Shown here piece after piece: positions 3,614 to 55,020 of a stretch of DNA of 64,000 nucleotides. The notes beneath the pieces are model-generated. The model was not told where the DNA came from, did no database searches, and saw nothing but the letters and a program-made list of their open reading frames with translations. The stretch comes from Candidatus Aenigmatarchaeota archaeon (GTDB lineage: Archaea > Aenigmatarchaeota > Aenigmatarchaeia > GW2011-AR5). The DNA is taken from assembly GCA_018304605.1 (NCBI GenBank), contig JAGVVU010000034.1, forward strand, positions 3,555 through 67,554. Direction: 5' to 3'. How positions within the stretch are numbered: position 1 is the first letter of the stretch; every line of letters starts with the position of its first letter. The position numbers and the translations under genes are program-made.

Positions 3614-3851
3614 ACTCCGGCCGATTCAGAGCTCATTAAGGTATCACAAAGGACACCAACTTAAGACGTGGTCTTAAGCCTGAGATTCTCCACAGCCAGA
3701 GCCCAAACTAGTCCAATGAAACACTAAATCCTTCCAGAAACGAACAACGGACTGAAGCGCTTTGCGCTTCCGTCCACCTGAGCTCTGATCTTCATAACAG
3801 ATTATGTATCCTTCAGCCCCGTATTTAAAGCTAACCCAAAAAAGCACCTAA

Positions 3852-6836: not shown

Positions 6837-8333
6837 TCATATCTTCTCAACCAGCATCTTTCTTCTGCCGGAAAGGATGCCGTATATTTCATATGATTTT
6901 GCCGTCTTTATTGCAGCGTTCAGCTTCTGGCGCTTCTCGGCGAATATCGTGAACAGGGCTTCTCCTTCTTTTACGCTGTCGCTTATCTTCTTGCTCAGCA
7001 GCACGCCTGCGCCCCGGTCTTTCGGGGTGCCTGCGGCGCGGCAGATGTCGACAAGAGCGGCATTGCTGATGCTTGAGACTGTTCCGCCAAGCCTCGAACG
7101 CACTGTGAAACTATAAGGCCCCACATCTATGTCTTCAGGCTTTACCTTTGGGTCGCCTCCCTGGGCTTCTATTATCTCCCGCAATTTGCGCTCGGCTTTT
7201 CCGCTCTTTACCATCAGCTCAGCTATTTTCCTGTTCCCCTTGCCGGCCATTCCGAGGAGCATGCCTGCTACGGAAGTTGCTTTGTCAAAAACGTCGCTTT
7301 GTTTCATATTCATGACTACTTCCAGCGCCTCCCTTGCCTCAAGCGCAGGACCTACAGCGTAGCCGACAGGCTGGTCTCCGCGCGTGACCGCACAATCAAC
7401 CTTTATTCCCATGCTCTTCCCGATCTCTATGAAATCCCTTGCCAGCTTTTCCGCCTCTTCCCTGTTATTTATTTTCGCGCCGGTGCCTGTCGGGATGTCT
7501 ATGACAAGATATTTGCAGCCGACTGACTTCTTCTTGCTCATCACGGAAGGAAGCAGCAGCGGGTCAAGGCCGAGCGGGTGCTCTATCCTTATGAAAAGAT
7601 CGTCTGCAGGCGCAAGGTCGACTGACCCCCCCCAGACAAGACATCCTTTTGTCTTCCTGATAACTTTCTTTATCTCATCAATATGCAGATCGACCGGCGC
7701 CAATATTTCCATGCGGTCGGCCGTTCCAGAAGGCGACGTAATGGAGCGCGATGATGTCTTTGGTATTGTCAGGCCCGATGCGGCTATTATCGGCACGACA
7801 AGCATTGATGTCTTGTCTCCAGGCACTCCACCGATAGAATGCTTGTCAACCACAGTCCCGGGAAATTTGAGCCGTTTGCCGGTCTCTATCATGGCTTTTG
7901 AGAGGCTGATGCTCTCATCGAGCGTAAGGCCGTGTATGTGCAGGGCTGTAATGAATGAAGCCAATTCCAGGTCGTTGAGGTTGTGCGCGATGACATCGTC
8001 AACAATTGTCCTGAGCTCCAGGCAGGTGAGCTCATGCCCGTCAGTCTTTTTCCTTATGTACAGCTTGCTCACAAGAGGCTTCCTCGGCTCGACATAGACT
8101 TTGTCGCCGCTCCGGATTTTTATAATTTTCTTCAGGTCGTGATAGAGCACAATCGTTCCCGGCTTGATGAAATTTCTTGTCGTATCAACTGTAACAGTCA
8201 CTTTCCTGTTCCCTTTTGTTAAAACAATCTTGTCCAAAGGATGCACGCCAAGCTCAAGTGCATCCTTCTCATTCACTATGCCGATCATCTTTCCGCCGGC
8301 ATTCAGCTCCAATACTTTTACCTTCATCTTCAT
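6837..8333 (-). CDS. deoA: AMP phosphorylase (thymidine phosphorylase family)
   Basis: 498 aa. N-terminal extension plus pyrimidine-nucleoside-phosphorylase core (SIGGVPGDKTS, TGTGAKIN). Operon partner of the R15P isomerase. Confidence 0.85.
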   Translation of the reverse strand: MKMKVKVLELNAGGKMIGIVNEKDALELGVHPLDKIVLTKGNRKVTVTVDTTRNFIKPGTIVLYHDLKKIIKIRSGDKVYVEPRKPLVSKLYIRKKTDGHELTCLELRTIVDDVIAHNLNDLELASFITALHIHGLTLDESISLSKAMIETGKRLKFPGTVVDKHSIGGVPGDKTSMLVVPIIAASGLTIPKTSSRSITSPSGTADRMEILAPVDLHIDEIKKVIRKTKGCLVWGGSVDLAPADDLFIRIEHPLGLDPLLLPSVMSKKKSVGCKYLVIDIPTGTGAKINNREEAEKLARDFIEIGKSMGIKVDCAVTRGDQPVGYAVGPALEAREALEVVMNMKQSDVFDKATSVAGMLLGMAGKGNRKIAELMVKSGKAERKLREIIEAQGGDPKVKPEDIDVGPYSFTVRSRLGGTVSSISNAALVDICRAAGTPKDRGAGVLLSKKISDSVKEGEALFTIFAEKRQKLNAAIKTAKSYEIYGILSGRRKMLVEKI

Positions 8334-9106
8334 CTAATCATCTTCTTGACCCCTTTTTCTGTGATGACCGCCGTGATGTATTTCCATGGTGTCAGGTCAA
8401 AAGCCGGGTTGAAAATCCTCGCGCCTTTCAGGTTTGCGTGCAGCTCAGAAGCCGGGCGCTGCTCCATCACTATCTTTGGCCTTTTGTCAACCGTGAAAGA
8501 AGACGTTATGACGTAAAACGGCTTCCTGTTCTCTTTCGCGACAACGGCCAACGGATGCGTTCCGACCTTGTTGATGAGGCCCTCATTCCTGAGCGCGTCA
8601 GCGCCTACCACGACCATGTCGGCATTGCCTATGAAATCGCTGATCGCAGAGTCGATTATGTAAGAAACTTTGACCTTATTCTTCAGGAGCTCTTTTGCGG
8701 TGATGAGGCCCTGATCCCTCGGCCTGGTCTCGGTGACTATGACTTCCTTTATTTTGGATTTGTTTTTTACGAGAGCTGCGACGACAAAGCTCGAGTGGCA
8801 ATGGGTCAGGACAACCGAGCGCTTGAATATTCTCGAGGCATTTCCAGCGGCTGCGGTCTTGGACGCTTCGAGCTCTTTGATGACTTTGTTGATGCCTTCC
8901 TGCGACCTGGATTTTTTCACCTTTTCTATCGCATTGAAGAGATCAACCGCCGTCGGCCTCGCTTCGAGCAGCTTTTTACACTCCGTGTCGAACTTTTTGC
9001 CGAATCCGTATTTCCTAGAAAATCCGGATAAGTGTTTCAGGGATTCGACCGTAATGTTCGTCGCGCCCTGTATCTGAATTTTCTTCAGGCGTGATACGAA
9101 ATCCAT
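8330..9106 (-). CDS. Ribose-1,5-bisphosphate isomerase (eIF-2B alpha/beta/delta-like)
   Basis: The C-terminal 258 aa of ORF 8330-9811 (from MDFVSRLKK...) has the eIF2B-like fold motifs GADALRNEGLINKVGTHPLAVVAKE. The upstream part of the ORF looks non-coding and overlaps the real gene 9191-9793 on the other strand. Confidence 0.75.
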   Translation of the reverse strand: MDFVSRLKKIQIQGATNITVESLKHLSGFSRKYGFGKKFDTECKKLLEARPTAVDLFNAIEKVKKSRSQEGINKVIKELEASKTAAAGNASRIFKRSVVLTHCHSSFVVAALVKNKSKIKEVIVTETRPRDQGLITAKELLKNKVKVSYIIDSAISDFIGNADMVVVGADALRNEGLINKVGTHPLAVVAKENRKPFYVITSSFTVDKRPKIVMEQRPASELHANLKGARIFNPAFDLTPWKYITAVITEKGVKKMIR

Positions 9107-9190
9107 ATTATTACTATGCAGATTGGGGAAATATATAGTAAACCTGGCGGATTCTAGTGCCTTAAGAATTTTCCATTCACAATAAGCACA

Positions 9191-9793
9191 ATGATTTTCG
9201 ACAGCAAGGACGACAAGGTAAACAGGCTGAAAAAGGACGTGCATGACATGGAGAGGCGCGTGGAGAGCAGCCTGCAAAAGATGAATGAGACAATAAAGAC
9301 GCTGAACGATATAATACTCCGCCTCCAGAGGGAGAATGTCCAGCTGAGAAGCGAGAGGGATTTCCTTGTGGAGCGGCACAAGAAGATGCTGAAGCGCGTT
9401 CCCGTCCCGGATCTTGCGGCAGAGATAAACGAAAAGCTCGTAAAACCGGCAGCAGGAAAGATAAGGGAAAATGCGGAATTCGTTCAGCTCCTCGCGAAGG
9501 AGGGCTTTGTGGAGCTCAAAGATCAGGGGCCAAAGCGCCAGGCAGTCGCGAGGGATCCGGTCAGCGAATTGAAGAGTACTATAATCGACGTATCCAGCAG
9601 GAGCCATGGGAAGTCCATAGACAGCCTTTTCGAGATAGTCAGCAGGGCGGGCAAGATAAGGGCCGACGATGCAGCCAGAAGGCTGAATGTTCACGAAGTC
9701 CAGATAGAAGAATGGGCAAAAATACTGGAAGACCATGAAATGGTTACACTGAAAAAATCCCCGATGGGCAAGATGGAAATCGTAAAAATCTAA
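9191..9793 (+). CDS. Coiled-coil hypothetical protein
   Basis: 200 aa with heptad-rich N-terminus and balanced composition. Confidence 0.5.
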   Translation: MIFDSKDDKVNRLKKDVHDMERRVESSLQKMNETIKTLNDIILRLQRENVQLRSERDFLVERHKKMLKRVPVPDLAAEINEKLVKPAAGKIRENAEFVQLLAKEGFVELKDQGPKRQAVARDPVSELKSTIIDVSSRSHGKSIDSLFEIVSRAGKIRADDAARRLNVHEVQIEEWAKILEDHEMVTLKKSPMGKMEIVKI

Positions 9794-10149
9794 GACTTGC
9801 AAACAACGCATCCGTCAACGCCATGGAATTTTCCAACCTTTATCAGGCCATTGCTGATTATAAGATTTGAGACCGAGCACATTTTTGTCGAGAGGTCTTC
9901 GGAAGTTATCTGGTTCTGATGCAGCTTGCCGCTTATCTCCTTTATTTCATCCTGCACGGCCTTGTTCTCCAAAAAGCCGCTCTTTCCGCGAAGCTGCCGA
10001 AGATACTGCGATACGGCAGGCTGGCTCACGTCAAGCAGCTTTGCCACCTCGCCCTGATTAAGATTATAGCTGGCTATCAGCTCCTTAGCTATTGCTGCTC
10101 TAAGCGTAGGCAATATATCATGGACAACAACCTCGCAAACGGTTTTCAT
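9790..10149 (-). CDS. HTH DNA-binding regulator with C-terminal Cys cluster
   Basis: LNQGEVAKLLDVSQPAVSQYL helix-turn-helix. C-terminal GCVVCKS. Confidence 0.6.
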   Translation of the reverse strand: MKTVCEVVVHDILPTLRAAIAKELIASYNLNQGEVAKLLDVSQPAVSQYLRQLRGKSGFLENKAVQDEIKEISGKLHQNQITSEDLSTKMCSVSNLIISNGLIKVGKFHGVDGCVVCKS

Positions 10150-17369: not shown

Positions 17370-18638
17370 TCACTCAGAACCGATTATGTCTTTTATCCTC
17401 TTGATATTCCTTATCTCTACCTCCTTCTCATTGCCGCTTGCCATGTTCCTCAGCTTGACGACCCCGCTCTTCGCTTCCTTCTCACCGACAACGATTGAGT
17501 ATTTTATCCCCTTTGAATTGACATATTCCAGCTGCTTGCCCAGACTTCTTGCAGATACATCGTATTCTGCATTTATGCCGAGCTCCCTGAGCTGCTTTGC
17601 TATTTCCACGCAAAATGCTTTTGAGCCTTCGTCCACGTTTGACAGATAAACTGCAACCTTCGTCTTCCCGAAATCAACCTGTATGAAGCCCATCAGCCTG
17701 TCGACGCCGAGCGATATGCCTGTTGCCGGTGTTGGTTTGCCGCCGAACGCCTCTATCATCCTGTCGTAACGACCGCCTGCTGTAATTGTCAGCTCGCTGC
17801 CGCGCTGCATAATCTCGAAGATGTTTCCAGTGTAGTATTCCAGGCCGCGCACCATGCTCATGTCCACCTCGGCAGAAAACCCGAATTTTTCAAGTCCCTT
17901 AAGCAAAACATAAAGCTCATCTATGCCCTCCTTGCCACTTTCGTCTTTTATGAGTGGAGAGGCTTTTTTCACGTCGGTTATTTTCACGAACCTCATTATT
18001 TCCTTTACCTTATCCTCGCTGACGCCCTTGCCTTTTAGCTCCTCCACGACTTCCTTCTCCCCTATCTTGTTCAGCTTGTCCACCGTCCTCATCACGCTGA
18101 CCGAATCAGCTCCCAGCGAATCCAAAAAAGAGCTTATTATCTTCCTGTTGTTTATGCGAACGTAGAAATTTGACAGTCCAATCTTTTGCAAAACGCTGCA
18201 CGCGCACGCGACCACTTCCACGTCGGCTTCTGGACCTGCTGCGCCTACTATATCTACGTCAGCCTGGCAGAATTCCCTGTAACGCCCAGCGCCCGGGCGG
18301 TCGTACCGCCAGACCGTGCCGAGCTGATAGCGGCGGAATGGCTTCGGCAGGTTAGGATTGCTGGCGGCAACGCGACAAAGAGGTACTGTGAAGTCAAAAC
18401 GCAGGCCAAGCTCCCTGTCACTTTTGTCTTTGAAATAGTAAATCTCATCCTTTATCGCTTCCCCGCTTTTTGCAGTCAATAGCGCGAAGTCTTCAAATGC
18501 AGGCGTATCGAGCGGGTCGAATCCCCAGCTCTCGAACACGGCACGCGCCGTGTCTAAAATAAACTGGCGCTTTATCATGTCCTCAGGCAGAAGATCTCTC
18601 GTGCCGCGTGGCGGCTGGAATTGTGCCATATCTATCAC
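17370..18638 (-). CDS. hisS: Histidyl-tRNA synthetase
   Basis: Class II motifs: PRGTRDLLP, LRFDFTVP, GGRYD. Confidence 0.9.
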   Translation of the reverse strand: MIDMAQFQPPRGTRDLLPEDMIKRQFILDTARAVFESWGFDPLDTPAFEDFALLTAKSGEAIKDEIYYFKDKSDRELGLRFDFTVPLCRVAASNPNLPKPFRRYQLGTVWRYDRPGAGRYREFCQADVDIVGAAGPEADVEVVACACSVLQKIGLSNFYVRINNRKIISSFLDSLGADSVSVMRTVDKLNKIGEKEVVEELKGKGVSEDKVKEIMRFVKITDVKKASPLIKDESGKEGIDELYVLLKGLEKFGFSAEVDMSMVRGLEYYTGNIFEIMQRGSELTITAGGRYDRMIEAFGGKPTPATGISLGVDRLMGFIQVDFGKTKVAVYLSNVDEGSKAFCVEIAKQLRELGINAEYDVSARSLGKQLEYVNSKGIKYSIVVGEKEAKSGVVKLRNMASGNEKEVEIRNIKRIKDIIGSE

Positions 18639-20520: not shown

Positions 20521-21312
20521 GTGATAACTATGGAGAGTGTGTACTTAGGAATTAGAAAGAATAAATTGAAGGCTGTAAAACTTCAAGAGAATAATAAATA
20601 TTTAGGACTTGCTTCTCTTACAGAAGGTTTCAAAAATTCAAGTGTTAGGTTACCAACAAAACTGACTCCGGAATTGGGGGAAGAAATCGGCATTCATATA
20701 GGTGACGGACATTTATCATCTAATCGTTACAGGTACAAACTTTTCGGTAACATAGACGAATCTGAATATTACGAGAATTTTGTGGCTGGATTGTACCAAA
20801 GGCTATACAACATAAACGTGAGATTAGAAAAAAGAGAAAGAGATGGTAATATCATAGGGTTTGAATTTTGTTCTAAACCCGTATGGATTTTCAAAACAAA
20901 AACCATCGGATTGATAACAGGTAGAAAAGACAATGTGTCAGTTCCCATCCTAATTCTAAACTCTAACCCGGCAATTTTGCGGGCATTCGTAAGAGGCTTA
21001 TTCGATACAGACGGGAATCTTTATTTCCAAAGCAGATATGGCTACAAAAACTACTATCCTCTTATTTCTCTTACATCCAAGTCAAAAGATTTATGCAAGT
21101 CGACATGTGAAATTCTGACAAAACTTGGATTCAAGGCAAATTATTACACAACACGAAATGAGGCAGTTGTCCAATTATATGGATATGAAAATCTTTTGAA
21201 ATATGCAAGTGAAATCGGGTGGCACAATACTAAACAGCTCAATAGATTCCTTGATTGGAAAAAACGCTTTCCGAATCTTGTGGAAAAGAAAAGGGCAGCT
21301 ATCGGGATTTGA
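20521..21312 (+). CDS. LAGLIDADG-family (double-motif) homing-endonuclease-like protein
   Basis: Motifs IGIHIGDGHL and LRAFVRGLFDTDGNL. Paralogue of the gene at 57008-57757. Its last 19 nt are antisense to the 3' end of tRNA-His. Confidence 0.7.
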   Translation: MITMESVYLGIRKNKLKAVKLQENNKYLGLASLTEGFKNSSVRLPTKLTPELGEEIGIHIGDGHLSSNRYRYKLFGNIDESEYYENFVAGLYQRLYNINVRLEKRERDGNIIGFEFCSKPVWIFKTKTIGLITGRKDNVSVPILILNSNPAILRAFVRGLFDTDGNLYFQSRYGYKNYYPLISLTSKSKDLCKSTCEILTKLGFKANYYTTRNEAVVQLYGYENLLKYASEIGWHNTKQLNRFLDWKKRFPNLVEKKRAAIGI

Positions 21313-21386
21313 ACCCGACCCGAAAGCTTTCTGTCAGCATAAGCTGGCCACAGGCTTGCATGCTACCAAGCTACACTATAGCTGCC
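21294..21386 (-). tRNA. tRNA-His(GUG) with encoded G-1 and an intron of about 19 nt after position 37
   Basis: G-1 opposite discriminator C73. Acceptor GCAGCTA/TAGCTGC. D arm GTGT-AGCTTGGTA-GCAT. Anticodon loop CTGTGG. T arm TCGGG-TTCAAAT-CCCGA. Confidence 0.7.
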
Positions 21387-29120: not shown

Positions 29121-29657
29121 TTATAGTAAGGACTTCCAATTCTTCATATAAAATTGGGATTTTTTATCGAAGTCTTTTTTGGGTGTAATATCAATACCCA
29201 ATGATTCTAGCTTTTGTTTGAGAAAATAAAACTCCTTCTGTTTAGAAGCCTTGGAACACATCTTTTCAAGCTCAATTATGTAGCCGTGTCCCTTCGTGAA
29301 ATCCAGGCAAACTGTAATGCCACCCCATTTAAATTCAGACCTTTTTCTGAACCATTTTACTTTTATTTTATAGCCTAAATTAAGAAATAATTTTTCCAAG
29401 TTATCAAATTCCTTTCTGTCAAACTTGATTTCTATCTCTTCTCGATGATTATCATGCAATTTGCCTTTTTTCATCCATATTTTAGAAAAGAAATTATTTC
29501 TTTGTATCCTAAGGTCCTGGTCGAAGTAGAAAGTTTCCTGATTGTCGTTTTCTGTAATCATATCAGAATTTTTCTTGAAGAAATCCAACAGTTTCTTGTA
29601 CTGTTCTTTAGAAATAAAGCTCCTGACTTCCACTTCAATATTTTTCATGACAACCAT
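29121..29657 (-). CDS. CYTH-domain protein (class IV adenylate cyclase / triphosphatase fold)
   Basis: EVEVRSF ... alternating Glu/Lys beta-strand pattern of the triphosphate tunnel family. Confidence 0.6.
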   Translation of the reverse strand: MVVMKNIEVEVRSFISKEQYKKLLDFFKKNSDMITENDNQETFYFDQDLRIQRNNFFSKIWMKKGKLHDNHREEIEIKFDRKEFDNLEKLFLNLGYKIKVKWFRKRSEFKWGGITVCLDFTKGHGYIIELEKMCSKASKQKEFYFLKQKLESLGIDITPKKDFDKKSQFYMKNWKSLL

Positions 29658-29669
29658 CCAGAAATTTGA

Positions 29670-30188
29670 TTAAGTCTTTCCTATATGATACAGGAATCTT
29701 CGGAAACAAAGCTTGAACCATGGCGTGTATTTTCCCGGGTTCTTTTCCATGTCAGCCCGCAGCTCGCCCAGGTCTATCCACTTAAATTCATCAATCTCGT
29801 CTTCATTCGGCTTCACGGGACCGTCATAATATCCGACGAACACATGGTCGAGTTCGTTCTCTCCCCATTCGTCGTCATACTTGGCTGAATATTCAAACTT
29901 GAAAAGAAAATCAGGCTTGCATGCGAACCCCAATTCCTCTTCAACACGACGTTGACCTGCAAGTTCGACAGGCTCGCCGCTCCGCGGGTGGCTGCAGCAG
30001 GTATTGGACCAGAATCCGGGCCAAGTCTTCTTGTGCAAGCTGCGCTTTGTGATAAGAAGCTGGTCTTTATTATTCAATACAAAGACAGAGAACGCGCGGT
30101 GCAAAGGAACGGGATTTCTGTGCGTCTCGAATTTTTCCTTCAGTCCCACCTCGTTGTCCTCGCTGTCCACAAGAATTACTTCTTCCAT
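29670..30188 (-). CDS. idi: Isopentenyl-diphosphate delta-isomerase, type 1 (Nudix fold)
   Basis: HRAFSVFVLNNKDQLLITKRSLHKKTWPGFWSNTCCSHP...GEPVELAGQRRVEEELG matches IDI-1 active-site Cys/Glu motifs. Confidence 0.8.
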   Translation of the reverse strand: MEEVILVDSEDNEVGLKEKFETHRNPVPLHRAFSVFVLNNKDQLLITKRSLHKKTWPGFWSNTCCSHPRSGEPVELAGQRRVEEELGFACKPDFLFKFEYSAKYDDEWGENELDHVFVGYYDGPVKPNEDEIDEFKWIDLGELRADMEKNPGKYTPWFKLCFRRFLYHIGKT

Positions 30189-30230
30189 GAGTAGAATTTA
30201 TTGAGAAAGAGATTAAAATCACATCTTCCT

Positions 30231-30334
30231 TATATCCCACGACTAAAGTCGTGGGTTTGTTGGAAGATGGGATCCCGAATGCGCCTCTAGTATATGCCGT
30301 CTAAAGACGGCAGTTTCAGGCGCATTCAAGATGA
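30231..30334. repeat. Structured repeat element, copy B: hairpin cccacgactaaagtcgtggg, then outer stem gaatgcgcct/aggcgcattc, then inner hairpin gccgtctaaagacggc
   Basis: About 93% identical to copy A over the 3' 80 nt. All differences inside stems are compensatory. Confidence 0.8.
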
Positions 30335-30339
30335 AATTA

Positions 30340-30843
30340 TTATAGAAGTTTCCTGCATTCGTTAAATACTCTTATTGACCAACTGCTGAACGGTCTGGGC
30401 TTTTTTCTCATTAAATTTTCTAGCTGGTTAGTAGATAAAAATTTGGCTTCTGAAACTTCTTTGCTGTTGATTTTTATCCTAGATTTTTCTGATATTTTAC
30501 ATGTAAAAATTTCGTCAAATTCTGTTTCTCTTCTTGAGGAAATCTTCATTTTTGATATTTTTCTAACATTCGCCTTTTTGATGCCCAATTCTTCTCTAAG
30601 CCCTCTGATTGCCGCGGACTTATAACTCTCGCCAATTTTGTTATGCTCACCCATAAATTCCCATCTTCCAGGATTTGTATCCGCTTTCATTCCACGTTTT
30701 TGAATCATGACTTCGCCTTTCCTATTAATTATGATTACAAAAACTCCTCTGTGAATAAGCTTGGGATTTTTGTGGCACTCGCTGCGCAGGGCGCGGCCTA
30801 CGACATTGTCATTCTTGTCCACCACGTCGAAATATTCAGGCAT
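30340..30843 (-). CDS. Nudix hydrolase
   Basis: GVFVIIINRKGEVMIQKRG...GRWEFMGEH...ESYKSAAIRGLREELGI Nudix box. Start taken at the internal Met (MPEYFDV). Confidence 0.6.
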   Translation of the reverse strand: MPEYFDVVDKNDNVVGRALRSECHKNPKLIHRGVFVIIINRKGEVMIQKRGMKADTNPGRWEFMGEHNKIGESYKSAAIRGLREELGIKKANVRKISKMKISSRRETEFDEIFTCKISEKSRIKINSKEVSEAKFLSTNQLENLMRKKPRPFSSWSIRVFNECRKLL

Positions 30844-30871
30844 GTCTAAACCTGGCTTGGATGCTTTATAA

Positions 30872-31981
30872 TTATTCTTTCCTGACGCCTTGCCTGTCAA
30901 TAGTCACATCCAGAGGCGTGAGACCTTCGTCCTGCCATGCAGCAGTGATGTTGTTCGCTGTTATGTCGTCGAAGCATACAGCTATCCCGCAATCGCCGCC
31001 GCCTGCACCCGAAAGCTTGCCTGTAGCGCCGTAATCTTCGGCAATCTGGGAAAGCTTCTTCAGCTCAGGCGTCTCGATATTAACGCCGCTTGCCTTTCCG
31101 AGATCAGCCAATGCTTCCTCATTTTCATTAAGGCATTCAAGGAACTCGTCATTATTGCCTGCTTTGAAACTTTCTATTGCCCTGCTTGCTATACAGGCAA
31201 TATCATTGTAAAGCCTGTAGTATTCACTGGAGTTTGCTGCTTTGAACTCGTTCATCTGCTTGATCGCAGCACTTGTCGATGCTGATTCGCCTGTCCAGCC
31301 AACCAAAAGACGAAAGTTGTCAGGCACTTCAAGCTCCTCTATTACAAGGCTGGGCCAATCCTGGCTTACGATGCTCCTTAACGATTCGCCTGCTTCCACC
31401 TTTTTTGTCAGCCATACAGGATCGAAGCGGCTGTAGACGAACAATCCGCCATAAGTTGAAGCAGCCACGTCGAAAGCGCTACCTACCTTGCCTTGTGCAT
31501 AATAGTGGGCTATCGTAGACAGCTTGTAAATCTCGTCCTTCGTTGCATCATAGCCGTGAAAATCTAACACAGCGGCTATCGCTGCGACAACAACGGCTGC
31601 AGAAGAGCCGAAGCCAACTTTTTTCATTTCCCCATTAACCTCGAACTGCGTGTCCCTGCTGCTGGTTGACAAATGAAAGGGCTTTGAATCTATTCCGCTG
31701 TCTTCCAGATACCTCAAGGATACTGACAATGCTTCTCCAATAAGCTTCATAGCGGCTCTTGACTTGTCATCCAGGCCAGAAAAAGAAACTTTGCCGTCTT
31801 CGTAAACAGCCTTAGCATCATGTATCTTGAACTCTTCGGCAGTTACCCTCATTTTGTCCGAAGGTTCGATTGAAACGTGCACGCGGTTGTTGATAGCAGC
31901 CACAAGGCCGTAGTTGCCGACCTCTAGTATCGCCCATTCGCCGCTTATGAAGAGTTTGCCAGGTGCGCTGTATTCCAGCAT
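30872..31981 (-). CDS. mvaK2: Phosphomevalonate kinase (GHMP kinase, bacterial/eukaryotic ERG8 type)
   Basis: APGKLFISGEWAILE N-terminal motif. GFGSSAAVVVAAIAA. C-terminal GKLSGAGGGDCGIA. Confidence 0.75.
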   Translation of the reverse strand: MLEYSAPGKLFISGEWAILEVGNYGLVAAINNRVHVSIEPSDKMRVTAEEFKIHDAKAVYEDGKVSFSGLDDKSRAAMKLIGEALSVSLRYLEDSGIDSKPFHLSTSSRDTQFEVNGEMKKVGFGSSAAVVVAAIAAVLDFHGYDATKDEIYKLSTIAHYYAQGKVGSAFDVAASTYGGLFVYSRFDPVWLTKKVEAGESLRSIVSQDWPSLVIEELEVPDNFRLLVGWTGESASTSAAIKQMNEFKAANSSEYYRLYNDIACIASRAIESFKAGNNDEFLECLNENEEALADLGKASGVNIETPELKKLSQIAEDYGATGKLSGAGGGDCGIAVCFDDITANNITAAWQDEGLTPLDVTIDRQGVRKE

Positions 31982-33010
31982 TTAATCAACCCTAACTCCA
32001 TCAACAGCCAATTCAGTCTCAATAGGCTTGTATCCCAGGGAAGAGATCGTATCTACAAGACTTTCCCTGTCACTATGGTGGCAAAGCATCATCCCTCCGC
32101 CGCCCGCTCCGCAGAGCTTCGCGGCACCGCCTATCTCAACAACTGCTGAAACAATATCGTCTATTTCTGGTATTGATACGCCCAATTCTTTCAAATTCTT
32201 CTGCGTCTTATTTATCAAATTCTGTATCGTCTTTATGTCTTTCTTCTTTAGCGCTTCCAGCATCTGGTGTGTCATCCTGCCGAGTTCCTGGATACGCGGT
32301 CTCCTGAACGACTCGTCCAGATTCCTTACCAGTTGAACCAGTTCTCCTGTGTTCTTTTCTGGAGGCTTCGTGTAGACAAGAACGAAATTCTCCAGCTTGT
32401 AAGGCACTTCTTTTGAAAGAGGTTTGATTATATTTTTAGGCTGCGCTTTCTCGAACCATATAACTCTGCCGAAACAGCAAGCTGAATTGTCGCCGCCACT
32501 CGGGGTGCCGTGTATCAGTTGCTCCATGCTAAAAGCTATGTCATTTATCTCTTCCAATGAAACCTGCTTCCCGTATTCCGCGGCAATTGCCTGGACGCCT
32601 GTCACAGCAAGTGATGCAGATGACCCTATACCCGCCCCGGAAGGAATGTCAGATTTGATGTTTATGGAAATCCCCCCGTCTATTTTCAATCTTTTCATTG
32701 CAAGTCCTATCATGGATTTCTTGTAGTTCGCATATTTGTTTTCCTTTATGCTCTCAAAAAGGTCTGAAAAATTTCCTTTCTCTGCGCACTTATTCCATAA
32801 ATCAAGAGTATTCTGCGTGGTTGATTTTACATCATCCAAGGAAAAAGAATTGTCATGACCCCATCGACTGTCACGATAACATATTTTATTTGATCTCTCC
32901 GCCTCGATTGTTGTTCGTAACCCGACTGCTGCCAAAATTGCTGGCTCGCCGTAAACTACCGCGTGTTCCCCTATTAAATGAACTTTTCCCGGTGCTGATG
33001 CAATCTTCAT
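31982..33010 (-). CDS. mvk: Mevalonate kinase
   Basis: APGKVHLIGEHAVVYG. GAGIGSSASLAVT. KLCGAGGGG. Confidence 0.85.
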   Translation of the reverse strand: MKIASAPGKVHLIGEHAVVYGEPAILAAVGLRTTIEAERSNKICYRDSRWGHDNSFSLDDVKSTTQNTLDLWNKCAEKGNFSDLFESIKENKYANYKKSMIGLAMKRLKIDGGISINIKSDIPSGAGIGSSASLAVTGVQAIAAEYGKQVSLEEINDIAFSMEQLIHGTPSGGDNSACCFGRVIWFEKAQPKNIIKPLSKEVPYKLENFVLVYTKPPEKNTGELVQLVRNLDESFRRPRIQELGRMTHQMLEALKKKDIKTIQNLINKTQKNLKELGVSIPEIDDIVSAVVEIGGAAKLCGAGGGGMMLCHHSDRESLVDTISSLGYKPIETELAVDGVRVD

Positions 33011-33014
33011 TATA

Positions 33015-34252
33015 TCACGATAGACCGAGCCTTTTTAAGAGTTCTGGGTGCATCCGCAATTCTTTGAAAATTGCGACCGTTCCAGGCGTGAACTTCTCTT
33101 TCTTCATCATTTCATCTATCCTCTTTACAGGGAAGAATTTTACAGAATCAACTTCTTCCTTGTTTATTCTGAAAGGACCCTCGTGACGTCCCATGTAAAA
33201 CATAATCCGCTCCCTGTCGTGCTTTCCTTCTTCTCTGTAATCTTTCATTGTCACCAGAAGAGGCTTTAGTTTCGTCTTGATTCCAAGTTCCTCCTTCAGT
33301 TCCCTGTATGCGCTCTCGCCATAACTATCGCCGCTGGCAACATGTCCGCTTGCTGATGATGTCCACCAGCCTGAATACAGGTCCTTCTTTTTGCTTCGTT
33401 TCTGCAGGAGGAATTCACCTTCCTGTTCAGTATCATTATATGGACAGAGCGGTGCAACAGCCCTTTCCTGTGGCACTCGTCCCTCGGCGCCTTGCCTATA
33501 ACCTTGTTTGATTTGTCTATGACGTCGAAATATTCTGTATTCTCTGCGTTTAGCGTAGTGATCAGATTTTTCTTATCCAGGACTTTTATTCCCAGTTTTT
33601 TTGCTTCCTTTATATCCTCTTTTAAAACAAAACCCCATGACGCGAGTGCAGCGTTTACACCTGTTGGAATCACTTCTTTTATGTGGTCAATTGAATCTTC
33701 CACGAACATGATATCAAACGTACTAACCTTCTCGCGCCTCGCCACTATCTTAATCAAATCACTCTTGTTTTTCGAAATTGTGCTGTCAAGTATATTCTCC
33801 GGTTTTACGGCAATTTTACTGCGGCAAAGAATATCTATTACCTGGCTTTTTTTGTTGCTGGTCACGATATAAACAGTTTCTTTTCTTGAAAGCCTTTGCA
33901 TGATGGGCACGATAAACCTGAAAGGTCCGTAAAGCCGACAAAACTTTTCTTTGTCTGTCTTAATGAATTTTTCCTTCTCGTCGAAAAATGTATCGGACAT
34001 TATCTTGGCTTTTTCAGGATTTTCTTCTGCAACCTTCCTCACGGCGGCTCTTGTAACTTTCATGTTATTTGATAGCAGAAAGAGAAGCCCGTAATTGTCT
34101 TTTGCCGTGCTTATGTAAGGTCTGTGTTTCTCAATTGACTTAACTGGTGGTGCGTTTTTATTCCCGAGACGTTTCCAAGCCCTATGAGAAAAAAATGCCG
34201 ATCCTTTAGCGCTGTCCGCAATAACCCCGTCGAAATCAAAGGCATAAATCAT
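33015..34252 (-). CDS. HAD hydrolase fused to a Nudix hydrolase, with a -1 frameshift near 33410 at a G-run
   Basis: The HAD motif [10 protein letters not shown] and the Nudix N-terminus [12 protein letters not shown]...[12 protein letters not shown] are in ORF 33296-34252. The Nudix box [10 protein letters not shown]...[10 protein letters not shown] is in ORF 33015-33476. The sequence aggaaggtgaa should be aggaagggtgaa to be in frame. Confidence 0.5.
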
Positions 34253-34254
34253 GC

Positions 34255-35244
34255 TTAGAATAAGTGCTCCGTAACTATTTTAGCGCCATCGCCCGGCTTG
34301 CATAGAATAGTGTTCGTTACGCCCTCAAGCTCCGCGAGGCGCATGCTTATTTCCTTAACATCCTGCTCCTGGCATAGCACCTTCACATTCGGCCCGGCAT
34401 CCATGGTAAAATAAGCCTGTATTCCTTCCTCCCTCATCTGCCTGACTGCGTGTATAATCTCCATCGTTGCAGGTATCCAGTAGATTATAGAAGGCTTCGT
34501 CGTGATCATGGTCGCATGCATCTTCAGGGCATTAAATTCGGCTACGCTGCCAACCTTTTCGAAGTCCCGTTCCTCTATCGCTTCCTTCATGACTTTCAAG
34601 TCCCCGTCAACAGTTGCAAGCCAGTCCTTGTAATAGGGACAGGTAGCAACTGTTTGAGCCATTCCCCCGCGGCTGCTGACAGGCTTTTTCTTTGATTCAA
34701 CTATCGTCGCAATCATCCTGAACTCCGGCCAATATTCCTTGCCAACTATTTCCTCGGCATAACTGTCACTTCCGTCATCGCGCTGGCCCCTATGCCATTC
34801 CACGAAGCCGCCGAAGACGCTGCGGCAGGCCGAGCCGGAGCCCTGCCTTGTTAATATTGAAAGCTCTCTTGGAGAAAGTTTGAGCCCCGCTGCCTGGCAG
34901 GCTGCCATAGTCAATGCAGAGAAACCGCTAGCGCTGCTTGCCAAGCCGGCCGCAACAGGAAAGTTGGATTCAGAAACAACACGCGCGTGCTGTTTTATTC
35001 CGGCTAATTTGCAGACCCTGTCGATATGCCCGTGAATGTCCTTTTCGTCCTTCTTGAATTCCTCATCGTTAATTGTTACCGTATGCTCGGCGTACTGCTC
35101 AGAGAACTCGACCGTCGTCTTTGTAGCCATCCCTTCGCATGTCATTGAGATGCTGCCGTTCTGCGGCAGTATCGGATCACTGCTCCTTTTCCCCCAGTAT
35201 TTCACTAGAGCTATGTTTGCGTTTGCTGTTGCCGTCGCTTTCAT
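34255..35244 (-). CDS. mvaD: Diphosphomevalonate decarboxylase
   Basis: NIALVKYWGKR. AAGLASSASGFSAL. GSGSACRS. Confidence 0.85.
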   Translation of the reverse strand: MKATATANANIALVKYWGKRSSDPILPQNGSISMTCEGMATKTTVEFSEQYAEHTVTINDEEFKKDEKDIHGHIDRVCKLAGIKQHARVVSESNFPVAAGLASSASGFSALTMAACQAAGLKLSPRELSILTRQGSGSACRSVFGGFVEWHRGQRDDGSDSYAEEIVGKEYWPEFRMIATIVESKKKPVSSRGGMAQTVATCPYYKDWLATVDGDLKVMKEAIEERDFEKVGSVAEFNALKMHATMITTKPSIIYWIPATMEIIHAVRQMREEGIQAYFTMDAGPNVKVLCQEQDVKEISMRLAELEGVTNTILCKPGDGAKIVTEHLF

Positions 35245-35294: not shown

Positions 35295-35720
35295 ATGGAG
35301 TACAATGCGGCGTTCTTCGGGCTTCAAGAGGTCTATTTTCTGGTCCTTAAAGAAGAGAAAGGCGAGCAGTTTGCTTTAGAAATGCTCAAGAAAGTCATGG
35401 AGCGGACGCTGGGCAAGGCGTACACATTTGCCGGCTTCAGGAAAGGCGATCCTCACAGCTTTGCCAGGGTTGTGGAAGGCAGGGACGAGGCAGTCGGACT
35501 CCATGTCGAGTTTCCCGAAGTTACCGAACGGGCAATAGTCTACCAGTTCCACACAGACCCTTTCCCGAACCTGAAGGGTCATGTTGACAGCGAGAAGCTT
35601 GATGCGGCATACATGAAATTCAAGGTTGAATTTCTCCTGGGGAAAGACTGGAGCTACAGGACTACAAAGCACCTTTGGAACGGGGATGCATACACTGAAC
35701 ATGTTATCGAGAAGAAATAG
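35295..35720 (+). CDS. Hypothetical protein
   Basis: 141 aa with balanced composition. Confidence 0.4.
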   Translation: MEYNAAFFGLQEVYFLVLKEEKGEQFALEMLKKVMERTLGKAYTFAGFRKGDPHSFARVVEGRDEAVGLHVEFPEVTERAIVYQFHTDPFPNLKGHVDSEKLDAAYMKFKVEFLLGKDWSYRTTKHLWNGDAYTEHVIEKK

Positions 35721-35731
35721 GGGAGTAAAAT

Positions 35732-36745
35732 ATGAAAGTGAAGATAGACGAGATGACAAAGCTGATGAAAAATGTGCTTGCCAAAAACGGGCTCTCCAAA
35801 AGAGAAGCTGAACTGCTTGTAGAAGATTACGTTCTAGGCGAACTCGAAGGCAAGAAGTCTCACGGCATGATGGCGTTCCCGTCCTTTGTCGAGAAGATAC
35901 CCAAAACCAAACGTGGCAAAATTGTCATTGAAAAAGAAGGGATTTCTTTCGCTCTGCTTAACTGCAATCAGGAGTTCGGACAGATCGCGGCAGAAGAAGC
36001 GAGAAAAATCCTTGTCAAGAAAGCTAAGGCAAATGGGATAGCCATGGTAGGCGCTTACAACATGCGCGCATTCTTGAGGCCTGGTACTCAGGCGGAAAAA
36101 ATCGAGAAAGAAGGTATGATAGGGATAGTCGTGAACAACGGAGGACTCGGCTCCATTGCACCTACCGGTTCCATAGACCCCATCTTGGGCACGAATCCCG
36201 TCGGCTTGGCAATCCCGACAAAAGAGAACCCTATCACCGGCGATTTTGCTACATCAAAACGAGCATGGGGAGAGGTGAGAGTGGCCAAGGCGGAGGGAAG
36301 AAAGCTGCCGGAAAATACCTTCATGGACAAGGAAGGAAATTTCACCACAGAACCCGACAAAGCTGAATCCGTAGTTCCTTTTGGCGATTACAAAGGTTAC
36401 ATACTTGCCCTGTTCATCGAGATACTGACCGGCTCATTGGTCAATATGCCAATGGGAGTCAATCCGGAAGACAGTGGGCAGGGTAGCCTCAGGTTCCTTA
36501 CGAAGAAAGGGGACATGAGAGGCGCAATATTCATAGCGATTGACCCGTCGAAATTCACGGATTTCAAAAGATTCAAGGCTGCAAACACAAAGCTGTTGGC
36601 ACAGATCAAAAGCTCCAGAAAGGCGAGAGATGTTAGGGAGATCCTTATTCCCGGAGAGCGTTCTCTGAAAAATAAAAACAAAGCAAGAAGTCAGGGATAT
36701 TTTGAAATCGATAAAGACCTGTATGAAAAAATAAAAAATCTGTGA
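35732..36745 (+). CDS. Ldh_2-family malate / L-sulfolactate dehydrogenase
   Basis: About 337 aa. EGKKSHGMMAFPSFVEKI...GTNPVGLAIP consistent with the Ldh_2 (MDH/ComC) family. Confidence 0.7.
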   Translation: MKVKIDEMTKLMKNVLAKNGLSKREAELLVEDYVLGELEGKKSHGMMAFPSFVEKIPKTKRGKIVIEKEGISFALLNCNQEFGQIAAEEARKILVKKAKANGIAMVGAYNMRAFLRPGTQAEKIEKEGMIGIVVNNGGLGSIAPTGSIDPILGTNPVGLAIPTKENPITGDFATSKRAWGEVRVAKAEGRKLPENTFMDKEGNFTTEPDKAESVVPFGDYKGYILALFIEILTGSLVNMPMGVNPEDSGQGSLRFLTKKGDMRGAIFIAIDPSKFTDFKRFKAANTKLLAQIKSSRKARDVREILIPGERSLKNKNKARSQGYFEIDKDLYEKIKNL

Positions 36746-37065: not shown

Positions 37066-37725
37066 TTAGCCCTCTATTACGGTCCCGATTGCCGAGCCCT
37101 TCAGTGCTTTTAGTATATTCTTCGGCTCTTTTCCGTCCAATACAATCGTCTTGATTTTTGCCGAGGAAAGTGCCTGAACGGCAGTCCTGTCCAGGACCCC
37201 GTATTTGTTCGGGCTGCCCTTCACCGCGAGCTTCTTCATGCCGGCAAATGTTATCTTGTCCAGCTTTCTTGCGCTACTGGACTTTTTCGGGTCTTTTGTG
37301 TATATCCCGTCGACGTTCGTCATCTTGATGAAAACATCTGCGCCAATACGCTTGGCTGCGATCGCCCCGTTGGCGTCCGTGCTCCTGCCAGGAACAATTC
37401 CTCCTATCACTCCACTCGTATTTGGCCTGATCTCATCGAGCGAGAATATCGGCTTCATCTTCAACATGGCCGAGAGAAACCTTACATTGGCTTCTATCAA
37501 TTTTATGAATATTTCCTCCTTTTCGTTCCTTGCCAAACCGAATTTTTCTATGGATTTCCCGTAGGCGCGCGTAAGCTTGCCGCCGCCTATGACAATAATC
37601 AGCTGATTTTTCCTTTTTATGCCCTCAAGAACAGGAAGCAGGCGGGAGAAATAAGAAAAGTCGGGGCCTTTTTCGCCGATGGAAACAGACCCCCCGATTT
37701 TTACCACGATTTTCATGCTCTGCAC
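37066..37725 (-). CDS. pyrH: Uridylate (UMP) kinase
   Basis: KIVVKIGGSV amino-acid-kinase fold. Archaeal PyrH length. Confidence 0.85.
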   Translation of the reverse strand: MQSMKIVVKIGGSVSIGEKGPDFSYFSRLLPVLEGIKRKNQLIIVIGGGKLTRAYGKSIEKFGLARNEKEEIFIKLIEANVRFLSAMLKMKPIFSLDEIRPNTSGVIGGIVPGRSTDANGAIAAKRIGADVFIKMTNVDGIYTKDPKKSSSARKLDKITFAGMKKLAVKGSPNKYGVLDRTAVQALSSAKIKTIVLDGKEPKNILKALKGSAIGTVIEG

Positions 37726-47267: not shown

Positions 47268-47342
47268 CATCACGCATAAATTACCCGGCTGAATTGTGTT
47301 TTTAATCCCAGCGCCCAATTATAATGATATGCTCTGATATAA

Positions 47343-47437
47343 CCCACATCTAAAGATGTGGATTTCTATGAGCATAGCATCCAGAATGCATTGAGTTTCA
47401 TCACACGACTAAAGTCGTGTGTTTTCAATGCATTCTC
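47343..47437. repeat. Structured repeat element, copy C (divergent): hairpin cccacatctaaagatgtgg, then 11-bp outer stem gaatgcattga/tcaatgcattc enclosing the inner hairpin cacacgactaaagtcgtgtg
   Basis: Same architecture and conserved GAATGC/GCATTC and CTAAAG loop as copies A and B. Sits between the FlaJ N-domain and C-domain genes. Confidence 0.7.
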
Positions 47438-47463
47438 GGATAATAAGCGGGGTCGTCCAAAGC

Positions 47464-52911: not shown

Positions 52912-53406
52912 ATGATAAAAAATATCAAGATACCGGAGGAGCGGCTTCCTGTGCTGATCGGGAAAAATGGAATGACAAAAAGGTCCATACAAAGAAAGAC
53001 AAAAACGAAAATCGACGCAAGCGAGGAAGAAGTAATAATAGAAGGCGAATCCATCGGCGTCCTGGACGCGGAGAGTATAATAAAAGCCATCGGGCGCGGC
53101 TTCTCTCCCGTGCATGCGGAGCTGCTGCTGGACGAGGACAATACATTCCTGATAATAGAGCTTCCCAAGGGTGAAAAGACATTGAAAAGATTGAAATCAA
53201 GGCTGATAGGTACCAGAGGCAAGTCGCGGCGCAATATAGAGAGGCTCACAGGCACCTATATTTCCGTTTACGGCAAGACTGTTTCGGTGATTGGCAAATA
53301 CAGCAATGTCAACATGGCCGAGCAGGCTGTACAGAAGATTATAAAAGGTATACCACACAGATTTGTATACGAATTTCTGGAGGCACGGCAGGATGAGCGA
53401 GCATAA
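52912..53406 (+). CDS. Double-KH-domain RNA-binding protein (Dim2/Pno1-like)
   Basis: VLIGKNGMTKRSIQRKT and LIGTRGKSRRNIERLTG GxxG loops. Confidence 0.7.
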   Translation: MIKNIKIPEERLPVLIGKNGMTKRSIQRKTKTKIDASEEEVIIEGESIGVLDAESIIKAIGRGFSPVHAELLLDEDNTFLIIELPKGEKTLKRLKSRLIGTRGKSRRNIERLTGTYISVYGKTVSVIGKYSNVNMAEQAVQKIIKGIPHRFVYEFLEARQDERA

Positions 53407-55020
53407 AAAAGCGGAAGACTTCGCGAAGGAGCAGAAGGAAATCAGCGTGAGCGAATTCTTTGAGAAAAACAAGCACCTTCTTGGATTTGACAACCCTACA
53501 AAGTCGCTGCTCATGGCAGTGAAGGAAGCTGTTGACAATTCTCTGGATGCCGCAGAGGAAGCAGGAATTCTTCCGGACATAACAGTCAAGATAAAGCAGG
53601 TGGACGAGAACACTTACATAGTTTCCGTGGCAGACAACGGACCGGGAATCGTCAGGGAGAACGTTCCCCGCGTATTCGGAAAGCTTCTGTATGGGAGCAA
53701 GTTCCACAGGCTGCTTCAGGGCAGAGGCCAGCAAGGCATCGGCATAAGCAGCGTGACACTCTATGCCCAGCTCACCACAGGGGTGCCGACAAAAGTCTGG
53801 TCGAAGGTGGAGAGCAAGAAAAAGACTTACTATTGTGAATTGCACCTGAATACTGCAAAGAACGAGCCCGACGTAATCAAGGAAGAGGAAATAGACAAGG
53901 AGGTCGTTGGTGAGCATGGCGTCAAGGTCGAGATGGAGATACACGGGCGTTACAGAAAAACCGTAGAGGATTACCTAAAGCAGACTTCTATCTCAAATCC
54001 GTTTGCCAAAATCGCATACACGTCTCCGGATGGAACGAAAACGGTTTTCCCGCGCTCACTCAATGATCTGCCAAAACCTCCTAAGAGGATGAAACCGCAT
54101 CCGCACGGCATGGAATTCGGAATTCTGCAACGCCTGCTCCAGAACACAAGCTCGCGTACACTGCTCTCTTTCCTGACGAACGAATTCTCTTCTGTAGGCA
54201 GTCAGAGCGGAAAGGAAATATGCAAACTGGCAAAAATTCCGGAAGATACAAAGCCGCAGGAACTTGACAGGATTGCGATAGAAAAGCTCATCCCCCGACG
54301 GACTGCTTGTCACCCATCGGTTCAGCGGAACTTGAGAAAAGCCTGAAGAAAGAATACCCGAACGCGGAATTCGTGACCTCAATAACAAGAGATCCTGAAG
54401 TTTACAGGGGGTTCCCGTTCCTCATAGAGGTCGGGATTGTTTATGGTTTGGGCGATGAAGTGCAAGCAAAAAGAAAAAAGGAAAACGATGATGACAAAAA
54501 GGAAGACGTGATAGAATTGATAAGATTCGCGAACCGGGTGCCACTGCTCTACCAGCAGAGCGCCTGCGCGCTGACAGAGGCGGTCAAGGATGTGGACTGG
54601 AGGCGCTACAATCTCTCGCAATCAGGCAGCAACCTTCCGTCGGGTCCTATGAAGCTGGTGATACACATCTGCTCCGTCTGGGTCCCGTTCATGTCCGAAA
54701 GCAAGGAGGCCGTTGCTGCATACCCGGAGATAATAAAAGAAGCGAAGCTTGCAATACAGGACGCTGGCCGCAAGCTCTCATCGTACCTGAGCGGAAAGCG
54801 CCGCGCGGGAGAGCAAAAACGCAGGATGCAGATGTTCGACCGCTACGCCGGCGAGGTGTCCGACGCACTGGCAATACTGACAGGAAAGAACGACAAGGAA
54901 ATAGAAAAGAAGCTCAGGGCACTCGTAGAGAGCAGGGTGCACATCAAAGAAGAGTTTGTTGACGAATCCGTAGAAATGTCGGATGCCAAGAAAGGGATAA
55001 AATCTGAAAAGAAACCATAA
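53393..55020 (+). CDS. top6B: DNA topoisomerase VI subunit B, interrupted by a frameshift in a C5 run near 54290-54300
   Basis: GHKL ATPase motifs (EAVDNSLDA, DNGPGI, GRGQQGIGIS) are in ORF 53363-54346. The transducer domain is in ORF 54307-55020. The frames rejoin if one C is added or removed in atcccccgacgg. Confidence 0.8.

Follow-up and report, generated by a model that had tools for sequence, protein, structure and literature searches.

An operon for the lower mevalonate pathway in its classical, eukaryote-type form, leading via mevalonate kinase (MVK), phosphomevalonate kinase (PMK), as well as diphosphomevalonate decarboxylase (DMD) to a type-1 isopentenyl diphosphate isomerase (IDI-1), appears to be encoded at positions 29670 to 35244 of a 64,000 nucleotide stretch of DNA from Candidatus Aenigmatarchaeota archaeon (assembly GCA_018304605.1, contig JAGVVU010000034.1, positions 3,555 to 67,554). 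This whole stretch is called the window in the following and all coordinates refer to it. As judged from the family membership and the diagnostic residues of the encoded proteins, we put at about 0.85 the probability that the locus represents the lower mevalonate operon typical of its lineage, in an Aenigmarchaeote, a DPANN archaeon, which is related to archaeon GW2011_AR5 (AR5). The first kinase would convert mevalonate to mevalonate 5-phosphate, the PMK, which is of the GHMP type, would phosphorylate this to the 5-diphosphate, the DMD-type decarboxylase would form isopentenyl diphosphate (IPP), and the canonical type-1 isomerase would yield dimethylallyl diphosphate (DMAPP).

Identity of the Core Enzymes

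Enzymes were named by the curated cut-offs of the NCBIfam equivalog models, with which the Pfam assignments were in agreement. Mevalonate kinase, PMK, the decarboxylase, and IDI-1 had all been claimed in an earlier note made from the sequence, and all four exceed these cut-offs. MVK scores 211 bits with TIGR00549 (cut-off 163), and its translation contains the motifs GEHAVVYG, PSGAGIGSSAS, SGGD, and KLCGAGGGG. PMK reaches 270 bits with TIGR01220 (cut-off 166), as compared to 102 bits with the MVK model, 120 bits with the Sulfolobales-type model NF040957, and 118 bits with ERG8. Its closest structures in PDB are Listeria Lin0012 (3k17, E 1e-47) and the PMK of S. pneumoniae (1k47, E 9e-28), and its homologues carry the PMK annotation in metagenome-assembled genomes (MAGs) of Aenigmarchaeota. 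IDI-1 is recognised by NF002995 with 178 bits (cut-off 127) and by TIGR02150 with 151 bits (cut-off 106). Alignment to the E. coli enzyme showed H25, H32, C67, H69, E87, Y104, E114, E116, and W161 all to be kept, among them the metal ligands H25, H32, H69, E114, and E116 and the catalytic residues C67, Y104, E116, and W161, and an identical protein from a MAG of a Candidatus Aenigmarchaeota archaeon is present in NCBI under the name isopentenyl-diphosphate Delta-isomerase.

The decarboxylase, the product of the first gene of the operon (MVD), yielded 326 bits with TIGR01240 (cut-off 171), and the equivalogs for phosphomevalonate decarboxylase (PMD), M3K, and MBD all scored far under their cut-offs, the PMD model NF040704 giving just 209 bits versus 475. 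In an alignment its residues YWGK(R), VSSRGGM, and FTMDAGPN follow the pattern of the mevalonate diphosphate decarboxylases (MDD) of E. faecalis and S. epidermidis, the corresponding residues of the wild-type PMD of Anaerolinea thermophila being YWGN and IGSTQGH. A lysine in DMD versus a histidine in PMD has been put forward as the discriminating criterion (Zhu et al. 2024, PMC11052028). As the DMD-type residues are present and the PMD-type ones absent, the decarboxylase is assigned to DMD.

The opposite assignment would turn the cluster into a route of the haloarchaeal type, running from MVK over PMD to isopentenyl phosphate kinase (IPK), with the putative PMK being a GHMP kinase of another role. 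In its favour, DMD and PMD are frequently mis-annotated (PMC11052028), IPK has been reported in some Aenigmarchaeota (Hoshino and Gaucher 2018, PMC6107057), and the single top match of the decarboxylase in PDB is the A. thermophila PMD (6n0z, 266 bits; wild type 6n0x, 261 bits), slightly above the MDD of E. faecalis with 258 bits. However, 6n0z is a variant of this PMD which bears exactly the lysine and the methionine of the DMD type. With the lysine of YWGK, the SSR motif, a methionine at the position of the PMD histidine, the low score for the PMD equivalog, and a PMK which passes TIGR01220 and translationally abuts in the same cluster, the haloarchaeal-type route is quite improbable.

Profile searches found no IPK, PMD, AcnX, or UbiD-type decarboxylase in the 64-kb window, and none of them was picked up within 10 kb on either side of PMK in 80 relatives, where the screen covered homologues of window proteins only. 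The sole amino-acid kinase nearby, encoded at positions 37066–37725 and conserved near the cluster, was considered as a candidate IPK and rejected. It is an archaeal UMP kinase (PyrH), for which TIGR02076 is the best family match (136 bits, below the cut-off of 158), with 115 bits for PDB 2ij9 and merely 49 and 24 bits for IPK.

Organisation of the Operon

The features of the region are collected in Table 1. The earlier note had placed the genes in a cluster on one strand, and the seven open reading frames (ORFs) between 35244 and 29670 indeed all lie on the minus strand at the coordinates it gave. Gaps amount to 2 nt between MVD and HAD, 4 nt between the Nudix ORF and MVK, 0 nt between MVK and PMK, and 28 nt between PMK and the stand-alone Nudix gene (NudB), and this tight spacing points to an operon-like organisation. 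The mechanical ORF of NudB extends further, to a TTG at 30900. A longer spacer of 151 nt lies ahead of IDI-1, and the stretch upstream of MVD is AT-rich and promoter-like. Two Nudix genes and a HAD phosphatase gene had been described as interleaved with the pathway genes. These genes are present, but the HAD gene and the first Nudix gene (NudA) proved to be one fusion, interrupted by a frameshift, and a CYTH gene which begins 12 nt past IDI-1, outside the region 29670–35244, also belongs to the same gene string.

Table 1: Features of the mevalonate operon and its flanks in window coordinates.
Feature	Position	Strand	Support and remarks
Conserved 141-amino acid protein, divergent from MVD	35295–35720	+	Kept beside MVD in relatives
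MVD/DMD, first gene of the operon	34255–35244	-	TIGR01240 326 bits; Pfam MVD-like_N and MDD_C
HAD-Nudix (NudA) fusion with 1-nt deletion	33015–34252	-	Pfam HAD_2 in ORF1, NUDIX in ORF2
ORF1 of the fusion: HAD, first ~50 Nudix residues, out-of-frame tail	33296–34252	-
ORF2 of the fusion: remaining Nudix domain, -1 frame, overlapping ORF1	33015–33476	-
MVK	31982–33010	-	TIGR00549 211 bits; Pfam GHMP_kinases_N and GHMP_kinases_C
PMK, GHMP type	30872–31981	-	TIGR01220 270 bits
NudB, stand-alone IDI-like Nudix paralogue	30340–30843	-	Pfam NUDIX 63 bits; degenerate box, low GC
Two-hairpin structured repeat in the NudB/IDI-1 spacer	30205–30346	+	Covariation; modelled strand antisense to the operon
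Type-1 IPP isomerase (IDI-1)	29670–30188	-	NF002995 178 bits; TIGR02150 151 bits
CYTH (triphosphate-tunnel) protein	29121–29657	-	Pfam CYTH 40 bits

Relatives and Origin of the Cluster

An identical PMK is encoded on 18 contigs of several metagenomes from groundwater, and the homologues of this protein are named Candidatus Aenigmarchaeota or Aenigmatarchaeota. The nearest named genome is AR5 (locus L013) with a DNA identity of about 75–80%. The remaining genes of the window are archaeal housekeeping genes, with Nop5, fibrillarin, S17e, thermosome, Topo VI, tRNA-splicing endonuclease, AMP phosphorylase, and intron-containing tRNAs. A PMK alignment, searched against one genome per species, yielded 80 loci. 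About 60 of them are labelled Aenigmatarchaeota or "uncultured archaeon" (44–81% identity), and the others come from further DPANN groups, namely Woese-, Pace-, Nano-, Iain-, and Undinarchaeota, or from the candidate phyla radiation (CPR, Patescibacteria), with identities of 38–46%. The order of the 141-amino acid protein, MVD, HAD and Nudix (where present), MVK, PMK, and IDI-1 is kept in about 26 of the 80 species-level loci. In these loci Nop5, fibrillarin, and DHH genes follow IDI-1 within about 1 kb, past short genes which were S17e where checked.

In GC and codon usage the four core genes proved to be native, MVD, MVK, PMK, and IDI-1 having a GC of 0.45–0.51 and a codon usage like their neighbours, and NudB and CYTH stood out by low GC. 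In a neighbour-joining tree of PMK, which carries no support values and in which deep nodes are unreliable, the window has AR5 as its sister within a group of Aenigmatarchaeota, and CPR sequences are interleaved with those of DPANN archaea. The loci of CPR and Iainarchaeum have the order MVK-MVD-PMK, versus MVD-MVK-PMK in the window. The earlier note had left open whether the cluster was acquired horizontally or retained from an ancestor. Because of the conserved synteny and the native GC the cluster is taken to be kept vertically within Aenigmatarchaeota, as an old trait of the phylum and not a recent import. Within the classical pathway it falls into the branch of DPANN and CPR. Between DPANN and either CPR or other bacteria an ancient transfer may have taken place.

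It is very improbable that this genome gained the cluster in recent times by horizontal transfer from bacteria, be they Gram-positive cocci or CPR. It is true that the "Gram-positive" profile TIGR01220 fits PMK best, that CPR PMKs are 40–45% identical to it and mix with those of DPANN in the tree, and that one Nitrospirota MAG contains an IDI-1 with 65% identity. Yet in dozens of Aenigmatarchaeota species, with PMK identities of 45–81%, the cluster stands at this same chromosomal site beside S17e, Nop5, fibrillarin, and DHH. The MVD, PMK, IDI-1, and MVK genes match the host in GC and codon usage, PMKs of Firmicutes are much more distant, and the cocci differ in gene order and IDI type.

The Nitrospirota gene (P0335) lies on a contig of 2.46 Mb, and the likeness of its product to the enzyme of the window (65% identity) suggests an inter-domain transfer or a binning error.

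Comparison with Known Mevalonate Pathways

A likeness to the operon of Gram-positive cocci had been proposed in the earlier note. In these bacteria the lower pathway likewise forms one operon, reportedly with the gene order mvaK1-mvaD-mvaK2 (MVK-MVD-PMK), and the isomerase is a type-2, FMN-dependent IDI (fni). The coccal mva operons are not known to contain HAD or Nudix genes. The likeness holds for the single operon and for PMK, which fits the "Gram-positive" profile TIGR01220. It does not hold for the gene order, which is MVD-MVK-PMK in the window, for the isomerase, which is of type 1, or for the nearest PMKs outside the phylum, which are those of DPANN and CPR with 38–46% identity, the PMK of S. 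pneumoniae being a distant match (E 9e-28).

A classical pathway is also known from Sulfolobales (Nishimura et al. 2013, as cited in PMC6107057), which share with the present operon an archaeal set of MVK, PMK, and DMD. They differ in sequence, with PMK scoring 120 bits for NF040957 versus 270 bits for TIGR01220, and the decarboxylase 194 bits for the DMD of S. solfataricus (5gmd) versus 258–266 bits for the bacterial enzymes.

Closest to the window is the classical pathway of DPANN and CPR. Hoshino and Gaucher (2018, PMC6107057) described classical PMK and decarboxylase (PMVK/DPMD) in a few Micrarchaeota and a full classical set with type-1 IDI in CPR, and regarded PMVK/DPMD as largely absent from Aenigmarchaeota. 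Li et al. (2021) reported a "lack of genes" for the pathway in Aenigmarchaeota apart from MVK, in another survey 20% of the Aenigmarchaeota genomes had the pathway, and Zhu et al. (2024, PMC11052028) found PMK and DMD of the eukaryote type in several MAGs of DPANN archaea, Aenigmatarchaeota among them. The core pathway of the window, with MVK, PMK, DMD, and an IDI-1 as in CPR, is thus a further case of a recorded trait, and its proteins have already been named by NCBI. Unlike in the 2018 account, PMVK/DPMD occur in about 60 genomes at species level which bear the label Aenigmatarchaeota or "uncultured archaeon", and what sets the operon apart from the DPANN/CPR pathway as described is the order MVD-MVK-PMK and its content of HAD and IDI-like Nudix genes.

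The literature on the mevalonate pathway in this phylum is inconsistent, ranging from largely absent (2018) and lacking (2021) to present in some MAGs (2024), and the loci collected here mainly tidy the record: the classical lower pathway, complete with IDI-1, is widespread in the phylum and syntenic. This is of relevance to the question whether these archaea with small genomes make their own isoprenoid precursors, and to the shared history of the pathway in DPANN and CPR.

The HAD and IDI-Like Nudix Module

Of the 80 loci, about 33 have HAD genes, NudA-type genes, or both within about 10 kb of PMK, mostly inside the cluster itself. Two further genomes, which were retrieved independently, have the arrangements MVD-HAD-(Nudix-Nudix)-MVK...PMK and MVD-Nudix...HAD-HAD...MVK-PMK. 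The full-length fusion is rare, with about 6 clusters among 1.84 billion representatives, while the separate domains are common; for stand-alone NudA-type proteins the names of the cluster members are nearly all empty. No literature report of Nudix or HAD genes in archaeal mevalonate operons was found, and term searches of PMC6107057 and PMC11052028 yielded no mention of HAD or IDI-like Nudix genes in the operon. The pair of a HAD phosphatase and an IDI-like Nudix protein, which in this subclade are fused, is regarded as a conserved and so far undescribed companion of the operon, to which a function can be ascribed by inference.

An AlphaFold2 model was available for P0121, one of the intact fusions, with a pLDDT of 90.7. 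In the predicted structure the HAD half matches type-IA phosphatases with a C1 cap, that is, phosphoglycolate phosphatase, beta-PGM, and BT2127-type enzymes. In the window ORF1 contains the HAD motifs DFDGV, VTSN, K, and EDSIDH and a HAD_2 score of 32 bits in Pfam. Sequence and model together place the HAD half in the HAD phosphatase subfamily IA with C1 cap. The closest solved structure to the predicted Nudix half is E. coli YfcD (2fkb, TM score 0.89), and the fold of IDI-1 also matches. NudA has a canonical Nudix box, G-x5-E-x7-REUxEExGU, and scores 62 bits with Pfam NUDIX. It keeps the residues by which IDI binds metal and diphosphate, with equivalents of H25, H32, H69, E87, E114 (as aspartate), E116, R51, and K55, has lost W161, and in 16 of 17 aligned fusions carries serine or alanine in place of C67, with P0139 having a cysteine one position earlier. 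By box and fold NudA is placed in the Nudix superfamily, as a predicted derivative of IDI, and it is set apart from the type-1 isomerases by its low IDI scores and the lack of the catalytic cysteine.

Dephosphorylation of IPP and DMAPP by Nudix enzymes is known. Plant NUDX1 and NUDX3, E. coli NudB, and human NUDT15 and NUDT18 convert the prenyl diphosphates to prenyl monophosphates. To our knowledge none of these enzymes is IDI-like, encoded in a mevalonate operon, or fused to a HAD domain. The same chemistry is what we propose for NudA. First the Nudix and then the HAD protein would strip a C5 diphosphate, which could be IPP, DMAPP, or mevalonate diphosphate, stepwise of its phosphates, and the pair would act as a relief or regulation valve. 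This is a tentative guess, made because of the genetic linkage, the IDI-like diphosphate pocket, the hydrolase motif, and the attached phosphatase, and we consider it somewhat more likely to fail than to hold. If the pair does hydrolyse IPP or DMAPP, it would be a natural analogue of the Nudix and phosphatase steps that have been engineered for isoprenol production. The suggestion in the earlier note that the embedded genes form an isoprenoid diphosphate housekeeping module is plausible and is strengthened by the conserved linkage; in this particular genome, however, NudA is frameshifted and the box of NudB degenerate.

It was also considered that NudA and NudB are extra IPP isomerases, either isozymes or enzymes with a variant mechanism. 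The IDI models are indeed their best family matches, the fold resembles that of IDI-1, the equivalents of H25, H32, H69, E87, E116, R51, and K55 are kept, and in several loci NudA is present with no canonical IDI-1 within 10 kb. Scores of 57–76 bits are far below the IDI cut-off of 127, however, and the loss of the C67 thiol, the loss of W161 in NudA, a fully canonical hydrolase-type Nudix box of NudA which true IDIs do not have, the presence of both NudA and a canonical IDI-1 in many genomes, and the fusion to a phosphatase all speak for a hydrolase, so that a function as isomerases is improbable.

Several points weigh against the reading of the locus given here, both for the core pathway and for its proposed companion. 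The deep nodes of the PMK tree cannot be relied upon. The upper pathway (thiolase, HMG-CoA synthase, and HMG-CoA reductase) was not found in the 64-kb window. With IPK reported in the phylum and its negative search covering these 64 kb and 10 kb on either side of PMK in relatives, a mixed pathway is possible. The substrate proposed for the HAD and Nudix pair is pure conjecture, a literature search yielded no substrate for YfcD, its nearest solved relative, and a hydrolytic valve within a biosynthetic operon is counter-intuitive.

Probable Decay of the Module in the Present Genome

The earlier note had listed a HAD-Nudix gene. Uninterrupted in-frame fusions of 404–446 amino acids are present in L008, L009, L012, L015, L028, and P0121, the last being 71% identical to the gene of the window. 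In the window itself the Nudix half is broken, as a DNA alignment revealed one nucleotide missing at about 33417–33419, where AAG-GTGAA stands versus AAGGGCGAA in AR5 and AAGTGCGAA in L088. The frameshift is reproducible, being common to the separate assemblies L001–L004 and L006 and found, L087 included, wherever an assembly of this population covers the site; these represent one population and not independent lineages. A contig first regarded as further evidence (L087/P0122) was rejected as an independent case, since it is identical to the window save for two patches and belongs to the same population.

A different decay is seen in AR5. Its counterpart (L013 8818–9453) has 211 amino acids, with nearly the whole HAD domain deleted and DFDG changed to DFAG, and keeps an intact Nudix half, a pattern opposite to that of the window. 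The fusion gene of the window is thus best explained by decay which has knocked out the Nudix half, and not by recoding. A programmed -1 frameshift, by which the full fusion would still be made, is most improbable: although the deletion is found in all assemblies of the population, the downstream Nudix frame is open for 134 codons, and a -1 slip after AAG would restore the sequence exactly as in AR5, the fusion has a single frame in relatives, the assemblies from one population are no independent evolutionary evidence, the same gene is decaying otherwise in AR5, and the site C AGG AAG GTG contains neither a slippery heptamer X XXY YYZ nor a homopolymer. Programmed frameshifting and transcriptional slippage were both discarded on the absence of such motifs at the site.

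The two patches in which L087 departs from the window lie at 36501–36600 and 33301–33400, with 16–23 mismatches each between contigs that are identical otherwise. Changes in the latter patch, which falls into the Nudix region, are mostly synonymous in the Nudix frame. L087 is probably chimeric at its contig end. L001 holds 80 extra bases between positions 37870 and 37871 of the window. These differences of L087 and L001 are attributed, from the contig sequences, to strain-level microdiversity of the source population.

NudB is a paralogue of NudA with 37% identity. Its box reads E-x5-E-x7-RGLREELGI, with the first glycine replaced by glutamate and "RE" by "RG", and the catalytic cysteine is absent; the L009 orthologue has a canonical Nudix box. 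With IDI models NudB reaches 76 bits (cut-off 127). Its GC of 0.375 compares to 0.45–0.51 in the core genes. Among the relatives it is found in L009 only, and in AR5, which is devoid of NudB, PMK and IDI-1 are separated by 24 nt. The CYTH protein gave 35 bits with cyaB, below the cut-off, and an E of 1e-6 with PDB 1yem. Its gene has a GC of 0.317, none of the 80 related loci, AR5 among them, has it at this position, and it is probably a recent and unrelated insertion. By composition NudB and CYTH look like later, foreign additions. With NudA broken and the box of NudB degenerate, the accessory module appears to be decaying in this genome.

On the other flank of the operon, the divergently encoded protein of 141 amino acids has orthologues beside MVD in L008, L011–L015, and L037. 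No Pfam match was obtained for it even at E = 1. It could be a regulator or a pathway partner.

A Structured Repeat in the Spacer

The 151-nt spacer between NudB and IDI-1 contains an element of about 140 nt with two predicted hairpins. Two more copies are present in the window (123–265 and 47311–47453, both on the plus strand). Outside it L046 has copies at 3585–3729 and 18407–18551, L061 one at 1430–1572, and L144 three, and about 29 copies were found in contigs of groundwater metagenomes. In an alignment of 24 copies 96.6% of the cells were paired and 26 of 43 pairs had compensatory changes, as compared to 34–46% pairing in slid controls, the pairing figure being inflated as the alignment had been fitted to the model. 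An independent alignment of five copies with MAFFT and RNAalifold had compensation in 17 of 43 pairs. Support for the modelled strand, here antisense to the operon, comes from conserved U-G pairs.

No Rfam family reached its threshold for the element. An H/ACA sRNA was considered and rejected: the sole match was SNORA51 with 23.7 bits (gathering threshold 50, E 0.08), an ACA is missing after both stems on both strands, there is no K-turn, and the apical loops read CUAAAG. A fixed cis-regulatory role was also dismissed, as 30 copies are not oriented uniformly to the genes beside them. This speaks more for a dispersed repeat or a small RNA gene of its own than for a regulator specific for the operon. 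The element may be a new family of noncoding RNA or a hairpin-ended mobile element of Aenigmatarchaeota. A wider picture would see in the HAD protein and the cysteine-less Nudix protein an undescribed branch of the DPANN mevalonate pathway, either a valve leading from IPP and DMAPP, or mevalonate diphosphate, over the monophosphate to the alcohol or a supplier of isopentenyl phosphate and dimethylallyl phosphate for another reaction, with the IDI fold repurposed as a hydrolase and the spacer repeat being, separately, a new structured RNA or mobile hairpin; taken together this is doubtful.

Other Features of the Window

Subunit B of Topo VI is split into two overlapping ORFs on the plus strand in different frames (53363–54346, HATPase; 54307–55020, transducer), and the open stretch of the second frame begins far upstream of its TTG. 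Either the genome has a second frameshift here or the split may be natural. ORFs for LAGLIDADG endonucleases at 20521–21312 (plus strand) and 57008–57757 (minus strand) have a GC of 0.36 and 0.32 and match in position the window's two low-GC dips, the former abutting an intron-containing tRNA-Pro at 21293–21385. On the minus strand at 6837–9811 a gene for AMP phosphorylase is followed by one for an unusually long protein of 493 amino acids which resembles IF-2B/ribose-1,5-bisphosphate isomerase and has an N-terminal extension of about 245 amino acids with no match in Pfam.

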